Origin: an uncultured Chlamydiae bacterium
Lineage (GTDB): Bacteria; Chlamydiota; Chlamydiia; Chlamydiales; SM23-39
Direction: 5' to 3'
DNA: 64,000 nucleotides
Assembly (NCBI GenBank): GCA_963828125.1
Contig: CAWHDP010000002.1
Coordinates: forward strand, 384,001-448,000
The position numbers and the translations under genes were made by a program. The notes beneath the pieces were generated by a model that was not told where the DNA came from, searched no databases, and saw only the letters and a list, made by a program, of their open reading frames with translations. Shown here piece after piece: positions 4,387-11,195 of this stretch (its first letter is position 1; every line of letters begins with the position of its first letter).

Positions 4387-5190
4387 TTGATGTCAATAGA
4401 GTTGATTGCGTTTATCTTTTTTTTTACCGGGCTTCTGAGCGGTTTACTTGGCGGCTTGCTGGGAATTGGGGGAGGGATGGTCACCGTCCCTATTCTCTAT
4501 TACACATTTTTACATGCCGGGATCGCTCCAGAAAAAATGATGCACCTCGCCGTCGGAACATCTCTTGCCGCCGCCTTTGTCACCTCGCTGACCTCCGCGC
4601 TGATTCAGATCAACAAAAAAGCGATCCGGCTCGCGACGTTCAGGCTGATGGTTCCCACTTTGATTTTGGGAGGGGTGGCTGGATCGGTCACTGCCCACGA
4701 TTTGTCGAGCCGTGTTTTGACAGTTGTTTTCGGATCGATGGCCCTTCTCCTCGGCTCCATTTTTTGTTTCCCTAAGATCCCAAACCTCCATATCGCTCAT
4801 GCCCCAAATCGGAGCCTGTCCCTATTTGCCCTACTCATTGGATTTCTCTCGAGCCTGCTTGGAATCGGCGGCGGGTCGATCGCCTTTCCGATCCTCCTCG
4901 GGTATCATCTTCCCCCTCAAAATGCGTCGGCCACCGCATCGGTTTCAACCGTCATCACAACCTTCATCGGATCGATCACGTTCCTCATCATCGCCTGGCA
5001 CACCCCGCATCATCCCCACACCTTCGGATATATCCAGCTCCCCGCCTTTTGCATCCTGAGCCTCGGCTCTATTTGCGCTTGCCCATTCGGAGTCAAGTTA
5101 TCGCGGATTCTTCCGACAGCCCATATCAAGCAGATCTTTGGAGGATGCCTATTGCTGGTTGGATTGGGAATGCTATACTGCGGCCAGTAG
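4387..5190 (+). CDS. TauE/SafE (TSUP) family sulfite/anion exporter
   Basis: Duplicated GLLGIGGG motifs, AVGTSLA, about 8 TM segments. Confidence 0.85.
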   Translation: MMSIELIAFIFFFTGLLSGLLGGLLGIGGGMVTVPILYYTFLHAGIAPEKMMHLAVGTSLAAAFVTSLTSALIQINKKAIRLATFRLMVPTLILGGVAGSVTAHDLSSRVLTVVFGSMALLLGSIFCFPKIPNLHIAHAPNRSLSLFALLIGFLSSLLGIGGGSIAFPILLGYHLPPQNASATASVSTVITTFIGSITFLIIAWHTPHHPHTFGYIQLPAFCILSLGSICACPFGVKLSRILPTAHIKQIFGGCLLLVGLGMLYCGQ

Positions 5191-5573: not shown

Positions 5574-6671
5574 ATGTTTCTCACTGATTTTCAACTGATT
5601 CGGCCTCGCTTTGAATCGAAGCAGGAAGATACTCTCGATTGGCTCGTCGAAGCCCATGTGAAGGCTGAAGGGGATGAGGCGTTTCGCCCCGTTATCAAGG
5701 AGAAACTTTGGCATGTGGGATGCAAACCAGACCGGATTGCGAAAAGAGGTCATATCCTGCCCGATTTCAACCATTTGGACTGGGAGAAAATGGAGCTTTA
5801 TCGCCTTCACGAATCGCCGAGCGGCAAGGATCTCTCTGCCCGCACAAAAATCTTTCAGACCGAGGTAGATCAAATCTTCGAACAATATTATCCTGAAACA
5901 GCGGGCCAGCCAAACGATCTGATCCACGTGAGCTGTACGGGATATGTCTCGCCGAGCGGAGCGCAAAAAATCGTCTCGAAGAGGGGGTGGGGGCGATCGA
6001 CCCATGTGACTCATGCTTATCATATGGGCTGCTACGGTTCTATCCCCGCTATTCGGATGGGTTCCGGCTTTTTGTCTTCAGGCGTCGATAAAAAACAGGT
6101 TGATATTGTCCACACCGAACTCTGTTCCCTCCATTCCAATCCTGCGAACCATCAACTAGACCAGCTCGTCTCTCAGAGCCTCTTTGCCGACGGATTTATG
6201 AAATATTCGATGTTGCAAAGCCCCCATGGCCCTTCCATAAAAGTCTTAGCGCTGCGCGAAGAGATCATCCCCAATTCGACCCAAGCGATGACGTGGGACG
6301 TGATTGAATGGGGTTTCGAAATGAAATTGGCCAAGGAGGTCGCGGTATTGATCACCCGTCATTTAAAGGCTTATCTAAGCCGCCTCTGCACACATCCGAT
6401 TCCCCCCAACACCCTCTTCGCCGTCCATCCCGGAGGCCCAAAAATTCTCTTGCATGTGCAGGAGCTTCTTCAGCTTAGAGACGACCAGATGCGCTTCAGT
6501 TTTCAAGTATTGAAAGAATACGGGAATATGTCTTCAGCGACTCTCCCCCACATTTGGGATAAAATATTGCGGGATCCTTCGATCCCCTCACATACCCCCG
6601 TCATAAGCCTTGCCTTCGGGCCGGGCCTCACAATCGCAGGGGCGTTGATGGAGAAAATATGTGGCTCTTAG
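5574..6671 (+). CDS. Type III polyketide synthase (chalcone/stilbene synthase-like)
   Basis: Catalytic triad Cys (HMGCYG), His (VHPGGPKIL) and Asn (YGNMSSAT); also HVSCTG, LFADG and AFGPGLT. Confidence 0.92.
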   Translation: MFLTDFQLIRPRFESKQEDTLDWLVEAHVKAEGDEAFRPVIKEKLWHVGCKPDRIAKRGHILPDFNHLDWEKMELYRLHESPSGKDLSARTKIFQTEVDQIFEQYYPETAGQPNDLIHVSCTGYVSPSGAQKIVSKRGWGRSTHVTHAYHMGCYGSIPAIRMGSGFLSSGVDKKQVDIVHTELCSLHSNPANHQLDQLVSQSLFADGFMKYSMLQSPHGPSIKVLALREEIIPNSTQAMTWDVIEWGFEMKLAKEVAVLITRHLKAYLSRLCTHPIPPNTLFAVHPGGPKILLHVQELLQLRDDQMRFSFQVLKEYGNMSSATLPHIWDKILRDPSIPSHTPVISLAFGPGLTIAGALMEKICGS

Positions 6672-7165
6672 CCGTCCTCCCCTTCGCCCTGCAAGCTGTC
6701 GGGATGGTTTTCGATGAGGGCTATTTTCATATCCGGCGGGGGCTGCCCAGATGGGAGAGGATCGGCCATCCGATCGATACGGGCAGCGTCCTCATTTGCA
6801 TGGCGTTCGTCCTCTTCGTCCCTTTTTCCGCAACCGCTCTCGCCGTCTATATCGCGCTGGCTTCGTTTTCCTCGATCCTTGTCACCAAAGACGAGTTCGT
6901 TCACAAAGAACACTGCCCCGCGACTGAAAATTGGCTCCACGCTGTCTTATTCACCCTCCATCCGGTCGCTCTCTCCTCAGCTGGCTTCATGTGGCCCGTC
7001 GTGCAAAACATCGAGGTGGCCCCCTGGATCGCCAGATGGCTCGATCGTCCAGACGCGCTCCGCTTTTTTTTACAAATGCAATTTGGGACGATGTGCCTGT
7101 TCCTCGTCTATCAGATCTTTTTTTGGAATATAATATGGAAAAACAAACCGGTCGTCAAACAATAA
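6659..7165 (+). CDS. Integral membrane protein with paired DE..H / E...H motifs
   Basis: About 5 TM segments; DEGYFH...WERIGHP and KDEFVH...TENWLH; overlaps both the PKS and methyltransferase genes. Confidence 0.7.
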   Translation: MWLLAVLPFALQAVGMVFDEGYFHIRRGLPRWERIGHPIDTGSVLICMAFVLFVPFSATALAVYIALASFSSILVTKDEFVHKEHCPATENWLHAVLFTLHPVALSSAGFMWPVVQNIEVAPWIARWLDRPDALRFFLQMQFGTMCLFLVYQIFFWNIIWKNKPVVKQ

Positions 7166-7878
7166 ACAACGATTTTTACGAAGAACTTTCGGAGGGGTGG
7201 TATACAGCCTCCGACCATCCGATCGCCCTTCTCAGAGCCGAAAACAGGGTCCGCGTCCCCTGGATCATCGGTGAAATCGGCCGGAACAAAACTGTCTTAG
7301 ACGTCGGCTGCGGCGCTGGCATCCTCGCAAACGCCCTCTCTTTGGCAGGGCACCAAGTCTTTGCGATCGACCTCTCTGTTTCAAGTCTTGAAGCGGCCCA
7401 AAAACACGATGTGACCCATCGAGTCGCCTACCAGATCGCCAATGCCTATTCCCTCCCCTATCCAGACAGCTCTTTCGACGTGGTTTGCGCCATGGACGTC
7501 CTCGAACACGTCGAAGAACCGAATCTCCTCATCTCTGAAGCGAGCCGCGTTTTAAAGCCCGGCGGTCTTTTTTTCTTCCACACCTTCAATCGGAATGTTT
7601 TGAGCTATTTCCTCATCATCAAAGGGGTCGAATGGTGCGTGCCGAACACCCCTAAAAACATGCACATCTATCCCCTCTTCATCAAACCGGGCGAACTCAA
7701 AGAAATGTGCGCCGAAAAAGATCTTGAAATCGTCCAACTCAGAGGATTTACTCCTGAAATTTTCTCCCGCCCTTTTTGGAAAATGGTGACGCAGAGAAAA
7801 GTCCCCCCCGATTTTACCTTTCGCTTTTCAAAAAATCTGGCAACAGGCTATTGTGGATATGCAAAAAAGTTAACTTGA
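7135..7878 (+). CDS. ubiG: UbiG-like SAM-dependent O-methyltransferase
   Basis: VLDVGCGAG, FDVVCAMDVLEHV, LKPGGLFFFHTFNRN, H..xFIKPxEL. Start placed at the ATG at 7135. Confidence 0.75.
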   Translation: MEKQTGRQTINNDFYEELSEGWYTASDHPIALLRAENRVRVPWIIGEIGRNKTVLDVGCGAGILANALSLAGHQVFAIDLSVSSLEAAQKHDVTHRVAYQIANAYSLPYPDSSFDVVCAMDVLEHVEEPNLLISEASRVLKPGGLFFFHTFNRNVLSYFLIIKGVEWCVPNTPKNMHIYPLFIKPGELKEMCAEKDLEIVQLRGFTPEIFSRPFWKMVTQRKVPPDFTFRFSKNLATGYCGYAKKLT

Positions 7879-7885
7879 GGATCGA

Positions 7886-8395
7886 ATGGCCCAAACCAAT
7901 TTTAAAGGACAACCTGTCCACACCGAAGGGAACCTTCCCCCTATCCACACTAAAGTCCCCGATTTTAGGCTCATCGACCGAGACCTCAAAGAGAGAACCC
8001 TCCACGAATTCCAAGGGAAAAGGAAGCTCGTAGCGACCGTTCCGAGTTTAGACACCCCCCTCTGCAGCACGATGACCAAGCACGTGAACGATTTCGCCAA
8101 AAAACATAGCGATTTTGTCTTCCTCACCATTTCTGCCGATTTGCCGTTTGCCCAAAAACGGTTTTGCGAGCAAGAGGCGGTTCATAATGTGATCATCCTC
8201 TCGATGATGCGAAACAAAGACTTTGGCAAGGCTTACGGCCTTTTAATCCAAGACGGGCCGCTCGCCGGATTGCTCGCTAGATCGCTTTTTGTACTCGACG
8301 AAAAAGATCATCTTCTCTATTTCGAGCTTGTCCCTGAGATCTCTCAAGAGCCCAACTACCACAAAGCGTTTGAATTTTTACAAGGACATCGATAA
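7886..8395 (+). CDS. tpx: Thiol peroxidase (atypical 2-Cys peroxiredoxin)
   Basis: VPSLDTPLCS, ISADLPFAQKRFC, GPLAGLLARS, EPNY. Confidence 0.92.
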   Translation: MAQTNFKGQPVHTEGNLPPIHTKVPDFRLIDRDLKERTLHEFQGKRKLVATVPSLDTPLCSTMTKHVNDFAKKHSDFVFLTISADLPFAQKRFCEQEAVHNVIILSMMRNKDFGKAYGLLIQDGPLAGLLARSLFVLDEKDHLLYFELVPEISQEPNYHKAFEFLQGHR

Positions 8396-8435: not shown

Positions 8436-9971
8436 ATGAAGACTGAAGGCTTCGGTAGGTGGAGATCGTTTTTTTGGCCCATACACCGCGCCGAGCTGAA
8501 AAAATTCCTTCCGATGTTCTTCATTTTCTTCTTGATAGCCTTTAACTACAACATTCTCCGCTCCTATAAAGACTCGATCGTCGTCACCGCCTCTGATTCT
8601 GGCGCTGAGACGCTCCCCTTTATCAAACTCTGGGCGGTTCTCCCAAGCGCTCTCCTTTTCACCTATCTTTTTACCCGCCTATCGAATTGGTATAGTAGAG
8701 AGAAGCTCTTTTATGTTGTCTTTTCGATCTTTCTTGTTTTTTTTCTCCTTTTTGCTTTCGTCCTCTATCCGTGCCGCAGTTGGCTCCATCCCCATGGTTT
8801 GGCGAACCAGCTCCAACAGATTCTCCCCATCGGATTTAAAGGATTTATTGCCATTTTTCGCAATTGGACCTTCACCCTCTTTTACGTGATGGCAGAACTC
8901 TGGTCGACAGCGATTTTCAGCGTCCTTTTTTGGAGCTTTGCGAACGAAATCACCTCAGTTCAAGAGGCGCGCCGCTACTACGGCCTCATCACATTTGGCG
9001 GAAGCCTGGCCGGCATGTTGTCCGGCTGCACTGCCATCTATTTTTCAAGGAATGTCTATATTCCTTGGCTTCCCTACGGCGACAATGCATGGGATCAGTC
9101 TATTTTTTTTCTGATCTCTGCCCTCGTTGTCTCTGGCCTTGCCACAATGGCTCTCTTCCGCTGGCTCACCGTCTGGGTCATCTCTCCCGCTGAAAAGGAG
9201 GCTCCGCCCAAAGAAAAAATTCAGATGTCGATGCGAGCCAATTTTGCTTACCTTGCCCGCTCGAAGTATCTCCTATACATCGCCTTGATTGTCTTCGCCT
9301 ACAATATAGCCATGAATCTCGTTGAGATTGTTTGGAAAGATCAAATTAGGGCTCTCTACCCCGACCCAGGCGACTACAATCATTACATGGGTCAGGTGAT
9401 TTTTGTGATGGCGATCATAGCGAGTCTGACTGGACTCATGACGACCACCAAAGTGATCCAGAGGTATTCTTGGACCGCCTCAGCCCTAATCTCTCCCGTG
9501 ATCGTCGGCATAACGGGGATTATTTTTTTCCATTTTATTTTTTTCCCGAATCAAGGGATGTCCTGGGTTCTCGGATTCTTGCACATGTCCTCGCCGCTGG
9601 CCCTTTCGGTCGCTCTTGGATCGGCGCAGAACTGTCTCAGCAGAGCCTCCAAATATACGTTCTTCGACGCCACCAAAGAGATCGCCTTTATCCCCCTTAG
9701 CTCCGAATCAAAACTCAAAGGCAAGGCCGCCATCGACGGCGTGGGTTCCCGCCTTGGCAAATCGGGCGGCTCAGTGATCTATCAAGGGCTGATTATCTTG
9801 TTTTCATCGGTGGCCGGAAGCATCCCCTGGGTGGCCGCCCTTTTCCTCGCGGTCATTTTAATTTGGGTATTGGCCGTAGTAGCCCTCGGCAAACGGTTTG
9901 ATCAACTTGTCCCAAAGGCGCCCAAACCGAAAGAGCCGATGACCCCCGCCGAAAAGTTAACAGTTCTATAG
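8436..9971 (+). CDS. NTT/TLC-family nucleotide transporter (Npt1/Npt2-like ATP/ADP translocase family)
   Basis: WPIHRAELKKFLPM, YVMAELWS, FWSFANEIT, SKYTFFDATKEIAFIPL, KGKAAIDGVGSRLGKSGGS. Confidence 0.93.
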   Translation: MKTEGFGRWRSFFWPIHRAELKKFLPMFFIFFLIAFNYNILRSYKDSIVVTASDSGAETLPFIKLWAVLPSALLFTYLFTRLSNWYSREKLFYVVFSIFLVFFLLFAFVLYPCRSWLHPHGLANQLQQILPIGFKGFIAIFRNWTFTLFYVMAELWSTAIFSVLFWSFANEITSVQEARRYYGLITFGGSLAGMLSGCTAIYFSRNVYIPWLPYGDNAWDQSIFFLISALVVSGLATMALFRWLTVWVISPAEKEAPPKEKIQMSMRANFAYLARSKYLLYIALIVFAYNIAMNLVEIVWKDQIRALYPDPGDYNHYMGQVIFVMAIIASLTGLMTTTKVIQRYSWTASALISPVIVGITGIIFFHFIFFPNQGMSWVLGFLHMSSPLALSVALGSAQNCLSRASKYTFFDATKEIAFIPLSSESKLKGKAAIDGVGSRLGKSGGSVIYQGLIILFSSVAGSIPWVAALFLAVILIWVLAVVALGKRFDQLVPKAPKPKEPMTPAEKLTVL

Positions 9972-11195
9972 TTGTACAGGAACGCCCTCCTTCTTGCGGA
10001 AAAGGATGGCCACAACAGCGATCCATCCGATGAAAAAGCCGATCGATACATAGCTCGTGATTTTCAGAAGAGATCCTCCGAGAGTAAACTGCAAAGCAAG
10101 CAGCCCCACTGAAATGAGAGCTTTAGAGGTTCGGTAAGCAAAGACGTCGATGATCGCCTTCGAACGGAATTTGGCGTCGAGCGGCAGTGGGATATAGAGC
10201 ATCTCGCGGATCACCCCGAACAGGGAGAAATCGACCGCTTTGAGAAGAACGTAGGAAAAAGAGAGAACGTGAAAGGTCGGGAAGGCGATCGAAAAGAGGG
10301 CCGATGAGCAGAGGAGAATCGGAACCGCGAAATGACTTCTTCGGAGACCGAGAGTCTGAATCATGAGGAACCCAGCGAGAAATTGTAGACATAAGCTCGA
10401 CGCATTGACAAGCCCCATGAGCTTGCCGCAATAGGCGGTGCGGAGATCTTTTTCCAAAATATTCAATTCTAAATGAGCGTTGAACTGGTATTCCATCAAA
10501 CCGACCGACACCTGCATAAAGATCACTAGAAAAAGAACTGTGGTCAGAATGGGCGAGCGGCGAATCAGCGAAAAGGCTTCGCTCGGACGGGGATTGAGTG
10601 TGAGATCGGTGGAAAAAGTTTTTTCAGAAAGCTGCGAGCGTTTCAGGGCCATCGTATAAGAAAACAGGAGGAGAAGATAGACCGGTATGGTCATGAAAAG
10701 GATCTTTTCCGAGCCAAAAAATTCAGCAAAAAATCCAGGAATTACGCTGCCAAGAACCGATCCAATCATCCCCACCCCGTAGATTGTGCCGTAGAGGTAT
10801 TTCGCTCCCGAGGCGGGGATCGTGCTGTGGATCATCGACCAAAGTTGCTTGAGCATGAGCAGGATGTAAATATCTTTCCAAGCGTATTGAAAAAAGATGA
10901 GAAACGGCGCGTTGAAGTAGAAGCAGCCAGACAACGCATTGATAGCGGCTGTGGCCGCGGCAAAGATCCAGAGGATCCGGAGCGGACCTAATTTAGGCAA
11001 AAACCGATTGTAGAGATAAATAACCCCCAAATTGAGGGGAACTGTCGCAAGCCAAACCCAAGGATACCCCTTTGAGGAAAAAACGGTGAGAAAGAGGGCG
11101 TTGCTCGTCGGGCGGGTGATCGCGTATTCACCGCAAATGGCAAACGCTGAGAGCATTGAGAAAAAGATAAAGAGCTTTTCCCTCTTGATTGCCAC
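9966..11195 (-). CDS. Divergent NTT-like MFS transporter
   Basis: About 12 TM segments; REMLYIPLP...KFRSKAIIDVFAYR matches the NTT C-terminal motif; GTG start overlaps the HD gene stop. Confidence 0.75.
   Translation of the reverse strand: MAIKREKLFIFFSMLSAFAICGEYAITRPTSNALFLTVFSSKGYPWVWLATVPLNLGVIYLYNRFLPKLGPLRILWIFAAATAAINALSGCFYFNAPFLIFFQYAWKDIYILLMLKQLWSMIHSTIPASGAKYLYGTIYGVGMIGSVLGSVIPGFFAEFFGSEKILFMTIPVYLLLLFSYTMALKRSQLSEKTFSTDLTLNPRPSEAFSLIRRSPILTTVLFLVIFMQVSVGLMEYQFNAHLELNILEKDLRTAYCGKLMGLVNASSLCLQFLAGFLMIQTLGLRRSHFAVPILLCSSALFSIAFPTFHVLSFSYVLLKAVDFSLFGVIREMLYIPLPLDAKFRSKAIIDVFAYRTSKALISVGLLALQFTLGGSLLKITSYVSIGFFIGWIAVVAILFRKKEGVPVQL

Follow-up and report, generated by a model that had tools for sequence, protein, structure and literature searches.

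A conserved operon that encodes a type III polyketide synthase, an undescribed membrane protein and a UbiG-like methyltransferase in chlamydiae: a candidate route to polyketide quinones

PkqABC of Mycobacterium smegmatis and Streptomyces sp. MNU77 and SrsABC of Streptomyces griseus combine a type III polyketide synthase (PKS) bearing W281 with a methyltransferase (SrsB and PkqB are isoprenylcysteine-methyltransferase-like) and an oxidising enzyme. According to the available text of PMC9927152, the oxidising enzyme is a flavoprotein oxidase, methylation comes before hydroxylation (metabolites III then IV), and the products are alkyl-methoxy-hydroquinones and the corresponding quinones, which are made alongside menaquinone and are raised in dormant cells. 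The HidABC operon of Cyanobium, which underlies the hierridins, is also a three-gene alkylresorcinol operon, and hierridin B is reported to be C4-hydroxylated and O-methylated (PMC10896814, PMC8086630). For ArsB and ArsC, the PKSs of the Azotobacter vinelandii ars operon, the starters are described as long-chain acyl-coenzyme A (CoA) or acyl-acyl carrier protein (ACP), and a switch site is described at which Gly directs formation of pyrone and Trp that of alkylresorcinol (PMC6274091). Here we describe a locus of three genes, which we call the trio, in a 64,000-nucleotide stretch of DNA from an uncultured Chlamydiae bacterium (the window; G000:C2:384001-448000, from a genome of 2.37 Mb in two contigs, 95.4% complete). 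The trio follows the known logic of SrsABC, PkqABC and HidABC with new parts, one of which is an undescribed candidate enzyme.

The trio lies on the forward strand and encodes a 365-residue PKS (5574..6671), a 168-residue membrane protein of an undescribed family (6659..7165) and a 247-residue UbiG-like class I S-adenosylmethionine (SAM) O-methyltransferase (7135..7878), the first two genes overlapping by 13 nt and the last two by 31 nt. For the methyltransferase the open reading frame finder picks a TTG at 6931; we prefer the ATG at 7135 because homologues align from there. The trio is a real conserved biosynthetic unit. In 67 GTDB loci found by searching with the membrane protein, the PKS gene was adjacent in every case (upstream in 66; downstream, on the other strand, in one) and the methyltransferase gene lay downstream in 65, the remaining two loci stopping at a contig end. 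The same arrangement was seen in 80 metagenome loci: where enough flank was present, the PKS was upstream in 68 of 71 and the methyltransferase downstream in 66 of 69. We also surveyed 251 evenly sampled Chlamydiota genomes, of which 250 were scored, counting as trio PKSs the members of a close clade with an identity of 43% or more. The membrane gene was present in 69 genomes and a close-clade PKS in the same 69; 72 genomes had the methyltransferase, among them 68 of these 69 and four others (the sets were matched by eye). None of the 29 genomes of one Chlamydiota family (f4), which are near 1 Mb in size, had the trio.

Homologues of the membrane protein also occur in 32 of 151 genomes of the Bdellovibrionota phylum. 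Among the best 25 of these loci the PKS was upstream in all 25 and the methyltransferase downstream in 17, the other eight genomes having a methyltransferase orthologue (49-52% identity) elsewhere; seven weak matches stand alone, several of the conserved candidate ligands considered below being lost in most of them. The membrane and methyltransferase genes are, in addition, often fused. Of 120 proteins listed among 148 long homologues, 119 carry methyltransferase domains, six fusion representatives score above the UbiG cut-off, and in-frame fusions were seen on the DNA at L007, L074 and L209. Two apparent fusions of PKS and membrane gene were set aside, one because a stop separates the genes (G113) and one because the PKS C-terminus is garbled, likely by a frameshift (P0251). 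The loci closest to that of the window are labelled Chlamydiota, and the membrane protein of one, L006, is 76% identical; its genome is classed as CC-III in the available text of PMC9666466, and the bacterium of the window probably belongs there too. In a quick, midpoint-drawn, unrooted tree of 50 PKS rows, the chlamydial trio PKSs formed a single group, with an SH-aLRT of 96, placed among rows from Bdellovibrionota. These surveys answer a call in an earlier reading of this locus (the original prediction) for the synteny of the triplet to be mapped across Chlamydiota and other phyla. We note that several loci titled Verrucomicrobiae, Acidobacteria, Bacteroidetes or Chlamydia trachomatis (L036-L047, L052, L057) are chlamydia-type tauE-trio-tpx loci, and that those included in the PKS tree group with Rhabdochlamydia; their titles are probably wrong, and phylum counts based on titles overstate the range.

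The PKS matches the chalcone synthase N- and C-terminal domains of Pfam (PF00195 and PF02797, the latter at 72.7 bits against a cut-off of 27), and direct reading of the sequence confirmed the intact Cys-His-Asn triad claimed for it (C153, codon 6030-6032; H285; N318), which is invariant in its homologues. Its top PDB matches are 3VS9 (E 1.4e-65), the G284W mutant of ArsC, and 3VS8 (E 9.1e-64), wild-type ArsC; the next match stands at 1.5e-27, about 38 orders of magnitude behind, and mycobacterial Pks11 at 1.8e-18. W241 aligns to the column of ArsB W281 and ArsC G284, and Trp occupies this site in all 143 trio PKSs long enough to align (61 of 61 from GTDB, 25 of 25 from the Bdellovibrionota phylum and 57 of 57 from metagenomes; 6 of the 67 and 23 of the 80 loci were too short). 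Because Trp stands at the pyrone/resorcinol switch site, the product is likely an alkylresorcinol, and the resorcinol-type PKS of the original prediction is supported. The trio PKS thus resembles the Azotobacter enzymes in its structure matches and triad, and ArsB in its Trp; it differs in being the only PKS of its locus, where a dedicated type I fatty acid synthase is lacking, and in being followed by two tailoring genes, which form no part of the ArsB/ArsC product description cited above.

Another possibility is that the PKS produces alkylpyrones, or else a polyketide of shorter length, and that the methylated compound is released to serve the host in defence or signalling. ArsC, the closest solved enzyme, is indeed a pyrone synthase, and chlamydial type III PKS (T3PKS) clusters are listed among possible defence genes in the available texts of PMC9666466 and PMC13229535. 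We nonetheless regard this explanation as improbable, given that the switch residue is Trp and not Gly throughout, that the unit includes no conserved exporter across the GTDB loci, and that the methyltransferase retains an insertion that points to a lipid substrate.

That insertion corresponds to residues 165-187 of UbiG, described as a membrane-binding element peculiar to UbiG (PMC4796655). The trio methyltransferase aligns to it without gaps, which points to a lipid as its substrate. Overall the enzyme is 32% identical to Escherichia coli UbiG (the trio clade is internally 45-79% identical), retains the SAM motifs and the equivalents of UbiG R44, D85, H134 and P182, and scores 142 bits with TIGR01983, the UbiG model, against a cut-off of 102.95, the only protein of the genome to exceed it. 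It nevertheless differs from UbiG and Coq3, with which it shares the model, the motifs and the insertion, in having no ubiA or ubiB context and in being tied, or fused, to a membrane protein. Searches of the genome, which did not extend to UbiC, UbiJ/T and UbiU/V, found no UbiA, UbiB, UbiD, UbiH/F/I or Coq7. The matches to the UbiA family (PF01040) are CyoE, the heme O synthase of a cyo operon, and MenA of a menD-H-B-A-C-E operon; the ABC1 matches are a Ser/Thr kinase and one weak match, and the match to a hydroxylase profile is SdhA. MenG/UbiE is present, and MqnA/D was not found. Moreover, no UbiB and no proteobacterial UbiA was found in any of the 69 trio genomes, in searches whose controls were positive. 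The methyltransferase is thus an orphan UbiG with respect to ubiquinone synthesis, in keeping with the original prediction, which had proposed a search for ubiA, ubiB, ubiE and ubiH. Of the genomic outcomes that the prediction had set against itself, namely a complete ubiquinone pathway and unconserved linkage, neither occurred.

We think it highly probable that the methyltransferase acts on the PKS-derived ring. It could alternatively be a true UbiG working on prenylated quinone intermediates, its own or those of a host, next to neighbours that are incidental; it does pass the TIGR01983 cut-off and is labelled UbiG in databases, 4 of the 250 chlamydial genomes have it with neither PKS nor membrane gene, and two bo3-type quinol oxidases are encoded in the genome. 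Such a role is very improbable in view of the lack of UbiA and UbiB in the trio genomes, the presence of both PKS and membrane gene in 68 of the 72 methyltransferase carriers, the frequent fusion to the membrane domain, and an identity to E. coli UbiG well below that within the trio clade. As a separate observation, at one of the four loci with the methyltransferase alone (L088-L091) tauE lies directly 5' of the methyltransferase gene (L089), as if the PKS and membrane genes had been deleted.

The middle gene has no match in Pfam, in NCBIfam or among PDB sequences. Its family comprises 281 representatives at an E value of 0.001 or better, and 148 aligned members, which are 32-85% identical, share a set of polar residues: D19, H24, R27, E33, D40, K77, D78 and E90 are invariant, and E20, H37, E79, H82, H94 and H101 are kept in 146-147. 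Five His and seven carboxylates, 12 residues in all, are thus present in 146-148 of the 148 proteins, and they fall into the groups D19 E20 H24, E33 H37 D40, D78 E79 H82 and E90 H94 H101. An AlphaFold2 model (pLDDT 97.7, pTM 0.91) predicts a helical bundle with helices at 2-27, 31-53, 58-85, 88-115, 122-127 and 131-159, with E20xxxH24, E33xxxH37, D78/E79..H82 and E90xxxH94 on the first four, near two short loops and on one side. In the model the motifs would sit at helix ends beside loops 28-30 and 86-87, which would put them all on a single face, with a spacing of i, i+4, i+7, and the basic loop and the C-terminus, which is the point of fusion to the methyltransferase, would share that face. 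Ferritin-like di-iron oxygenases such as Coq7 and alternative oxidase have paired acid-x2/3-His motifs on four helices that form a single site. A metal site is likely in the membrane protein, and its invariant His and carboxylates are in keeping with the di-metal enzyme proposed earlier, the site itself being putative; that this candidate di-metal protein is the ring hydroxylase we would put at about an even chance. The best VIA fold match was bestrophin, with a Z of 8.9 and an rmsd of 4.4 across 144 residues, which is in the range of generic bundles, and the ESM Atlas returned unnamed clusters only (0.98, 0.95 and 0.90), plus one row at 0.75 among named ones; this lack of a family or fold match does not establish a new fold. 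PlqH was considered as a model for the protein and dropped, being a flavoenzyme. Stand-alone, divergent homologues without a PKS occur in genomes of the Bdellovibrionota phylum (L198-L203), with several ligands changed.

A second PKS operon in chlamydiae offers a comparison. A distant PKS (26-34% identity) was found in 29 further Chlamydiota genomes, none of which has the trio, and its clade lies on a far branch of the PKS tree from the trio PKSs. Nineteen of the 29 genomes belong to one family (f6), and the mutual exclusion of the two systems, partly lineage-driven, is suggestive only. Of 13 loci fetched, 11 have, in this order, the PKS, a methyltransferase and a gene of about 350 codons; the three such genes that were scanned encode flavin adenine dinucleotide (FAD)-dependent oxidoreductases, with scores below the curated cut-offs. 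The other two loci have, respectively, a PKS-MMPL-FAD monooxygenase-UbiE-like arrangement and a PKS alone. The second operon fits the layout of PkqABC, of HidABC and of a planctomycete methyltransferase-FAD oxidoreductase-PKS operon; the latter two have an FAD oxidoreductase where the trio has its membrane protein. The trio itself has the linked SAM methyltransferase of SrsABC, PkqABC and HidABC; a linked FAD oxidoreductase was not found, the middle gene having no flavoprotein domain, and neither the 147 trio loci nor this genome contained a match to the FAD gene of the second operon. A flavoenzyme in the same slot of the second operon suggests that the membrane protein is placed as the oxidising enzyme and, by analogy, that it may replace a flavin hydroxylase.

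Several loci with a distant PKS deserve mention in their own right. At L075:5241-12854 (G089) and L076 (G123), which are from one genus, cyoABCDE follows directly downstream of the operon and in the same orientation. At L087:3840-5252 (G115) a vanadium-haloperoxidase-like gene (PF21167 and PF22778) stands between the methyltransferase and FAD oxidoreductase genes; it could lead to a halogenated alkylresorcinol resembling hierridin C, for which the available text of PMC8086630 names no chlorinating enzyme. A third layout, at L078 (G001), joins a PKS to YceI, an MMPL transporter, an FAD monooxygenase and a UbiE-like methyltransferase.

We propose the following pathway. The PKS would extend a long-chain acyl-ACP or acyl-CoA with three malonyl units to give a 5-alkylresorcinol. 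The membrane protein would then hydroxylate ring carbon C4 at its His/carboxylate di-metal site, giving a 2-alkyl-6-hydroxy-1,4-benzenediol, and O-methylation of the new catechol by the UbiG-like enzyme would yield a 2-alkyl-6-methoxy-1,4-hydroquinone or quinone as a membrane lipid. The C4-hydroxylated compound would share a 2-tail-6-hydroxyphenol head with the natural substrate of UbiG, so the final product would carry, on an alkyl tail, the head group of 2-methoxy-6-polyprenyl-1,4-benzoquinol, the intermediate of ubiquinone synthesis that is the substrate of UbiE. It would also be close to the polyketide quinol of Streptomyces sp. MNU77 and M. smegmatis. Relative to PkqABC and SrsABC, then, the trio would have a UbiG-type methyltransferase and, by prediction, the reverse order of hydroxylation and methylation, and no flavoprotein was found in its loci. 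That the trio makes this hydroquinone or quinone is, in our estimate, a balanced proposition. In outline the original prediction, methylation of a polyketide ring, is partly supported: the orphan UbiG, the conserved linkage and the resorcinol-type PKS favour it, its appeal to tpx has lost ground, and so has the idea of a stand-in for menaquinone.

Several observations weigh against the proposed chemistry. No electron donor (ferredoxin, reductase or cytochrome b5) is encoded in the operon, and neither by sequence nor by fold does the membrane protein match a known oxygenase; Foldseek with its model gave no match at an E value of 0.001 or better, and a two-fold internal repeat is weak (hhalign E 0.016, probability 2.8%). 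The function of the second-operon FAD enzymes as hydroxylases is itself inferred, and PMC10896814, in its available text, could not assign that role. In 3 of the 69 trio genomes (G069, G116, G147) the PKS match has a stop or is split, and the unit is dispensable in places. Trp at the switch site, which is also present in 13 of 13 second-clade chlamydial PKSs, marks a product class and not the trio pathway, and some Trp-bearing PKSs still produce pyrones.

The want of an electron donor and of oxygenase homology also speaks for a non-redox outcome, in which the trio makes an O-methylated alkylresorcinol, as do BpsAB and SrsAB, or as in the cyst-coat products of ArsB, and the membrane protein has another job at its polar site: decarboxylation of an alkylresorcylic acid, help with cyclisation or release, or extraction of the lipid and its hand-over from PKS to methyltransferase. 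The membrane gene is in fact the most faithful partner of the PKS (25 of 25 Bdellovibrionota-phylum loci; the same 69 chlamydial genomes), it fuses to the methyltransferase as a scaffold would, and alkylresorcinols of Azotobacter are described as structural cyst lipids (PMC6274091). Yet twelve buried His, Asp and Glu residues conserved down to 32% identity exceed the needs of a scaffold; ArsB-type enzymes are reported to decarboxylate unaided (PMC6274091); UbiG's two natural substrates, judged from family names, are ortho-dihydroxy rings, which a resorcinol is not; and a flavoenzyme fills the slot of the membrane protein in the other chlamydial operon. On balance we consider a non-redox product somewhat unlikely, though the most serious of the alternatives.

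If a quinone is made, it would be an accessory redox lipid produced alongside menaquinone. Its use as an alternate respiratory carrier and its use in the dormant elementary body, as a lipid of the envelope or as an antioxidant, are, to our minds, equally tentative possibilities, each falling short of an even chance; a use in chemical defence is unlikely. The idea that it stands in for menaquinone was rejected: 66 of the 69 trio genomes keep menaquinone markers (menB in 58, and MqnA/D in 8 of the other 11), which also speaks against a respiratory role. There is precedent for an accessory carrier, as polyketide quinols of MNU77 and M. smegmatis are described as alternate electron carriers in spores and hypoxic biofilms (PMC9927152). 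Endochlamydia hydrae is reported to have a T3PKS cluster together with a full menaquinone pathway (PMC13229535). In the genome studied here, menA (L068:9044-9948; G000:C2 about 347100-347900) is split by a frameshift at a place where a short-read contig of run X1, perhaps the origin of this DNA, has one additional base, and the frameshift is likely an assembly error.

A more far-reaching reading combines these elements. The middle gene would found a hitherto unknown family of aromatic hydroxylases, small integral-membrane proteins with a di-metal site; environmental chlamydiae and Bdellovibrionota would use it, together with a repurposed UbiG, to make a prenyl-free, high-potential mimic of ubiquinone that feeds their bo3-type oxidases; two unrelated gene sets, the trio and the flavin-based trio, would have been recruited, in a mutually exclusive manner, and would supply the mimic in roughly 40% of the Chlamydiota sampled; and this enzyme would account for hundreds of 'UbiG' entries in databases. 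We hold this reading to be rather unlikely.

Some findings hint at a respiratory role of the proposed lipid, among them the place of the second operon next to cyoABCDE at L075 and L076. CyoB, the marker of a bo3-type oxidase, is present in 162 of the 251 Chlamydiota genomes, in 57 of the 69 with the trio versus 105 of 181 others, and, within the family of the window, in 13 of 14 versus 8 of 21, although kin are not independent; that family includes genomes without both menB and cyoB. The genome has two bo3-type operons, L069 and L220 (G000:C1 331 kb and C2 888 kb), of which one has E at E. coli position 101 and the other Q. NDH-2 lies directly upstream of the PKS and membrane genes in 7 of 8 related Bdellovibrionota loci; in this group (L206:4077-7020, L208) the methyltransferase is elsewhere.

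Other findings count against a respiratory connection. CyoB occurs without the trio in the 105 genomes above, 12 trio genomes lack CyoB, cyoA occurs in the flank of just 1 of 147 trio loci, and NDH-2 in none. Each respiratory adjacency probably represents one event, since the two second-operon loci next to cyoABCDE are from one genus and the NDH-2 loci cluster in the tree. All 23 chlamydial CyoB copies examined have K71, D75 and H98 at the quinol site, with Lys in place of the quinol-binding Arg71, and Q or E at 101, of which we take E to be menaquinol-type; Q101 and E101 are both found among trio carriers and non-carriers, and the site residues do not track the trio. D75, R71 and H98 are the quinol-site residues given in the available text of PMC13022660.

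The genes that flank the trio are not core members. Just downstream, after a gap of 7 nt, is a co-oriented tpx gene for a 169-residue thiol peroxidase (7886..8395, + strand; PRK00522, 203 bits against a cut-off of 123), and the coordinates, overlaps and gap agree with the arrangement first proposed. Among 60 GTDB loci with room for it, tpx was directly downstream in 24, further away in 15 and absent in 21, and it was found in none of the 25 short Bdellovibrionota-phylum loci; it was therefore rejected as a core partner, and the antioxidant link built on it is weakened. Upstream lies a gene for a TauE/SafE-family membrane protein (4387..5190, + strand; PF01925, E 3e-44), matches to which occur near the trio in 28 of the 67 GTDB loci, as counted by eye in flanks of unequal length. 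The gene content of the window is chlamydial by Pfam (an ATP/ADP translocase and a Pom outer-membrane protein). In the interval 8436-11195 the ATP/ADP translocase gene (PF03219, 593 bits) is convergent with a divergent 409-codon translocase-like MFS gene, beyond which are an HD-domain gene and then IMPDH/GMP reductase. A scan of the locus for promoters and terminators gave signals no better than chance.

In the literature that we searched, mostly open-access, we found no description of a PKS-membrane protein-UbiG operon or of the membrane family. T3PKS clusters have been reported by Dharamshi et al. 2022 (PMC9666466) to be widespread in Chlamydiae and absent from Chlamydiaceae; they are placed in CC-III/Sororchlamydiaceae, Rhabdochlamydiaceae and Parachlamydiaceae, including the genomes of L006 and L067. 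In 30 of the 47 T3PKS rows of its Data S10B, the top MIBiG hits are hierridin (most), 'entotheonella', and alkylresorcinol or alkyl-methoxyhydroquinone; operon types are not separated in those rows or in the available text, and neither discusses the membrane protein or a quinone product. A term search of the available text of PMC13386864 found no mention of chlamydiae or polyketides; as cited in that text, ubiquinone has been reported for Bdellovibrio, with only three pathway homologues found.

With the trio, polyketide quinones would gain a route that uses no flavin enzyme. The trio would account for the orphan 'ubiG' of lineages that are unable to make ubiquinone and points to a common mis-annotation, and it may bear on the reported Bdellovibrio ubiquinone. 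It also bears on which quinol the bo3-type oxidases of chlamydiae use and on the lipids that protect the dormant elementary body. Finally, the middle gene offers a testable family of membrane enzymes, as yet unnamed, with 281 representative clusters.

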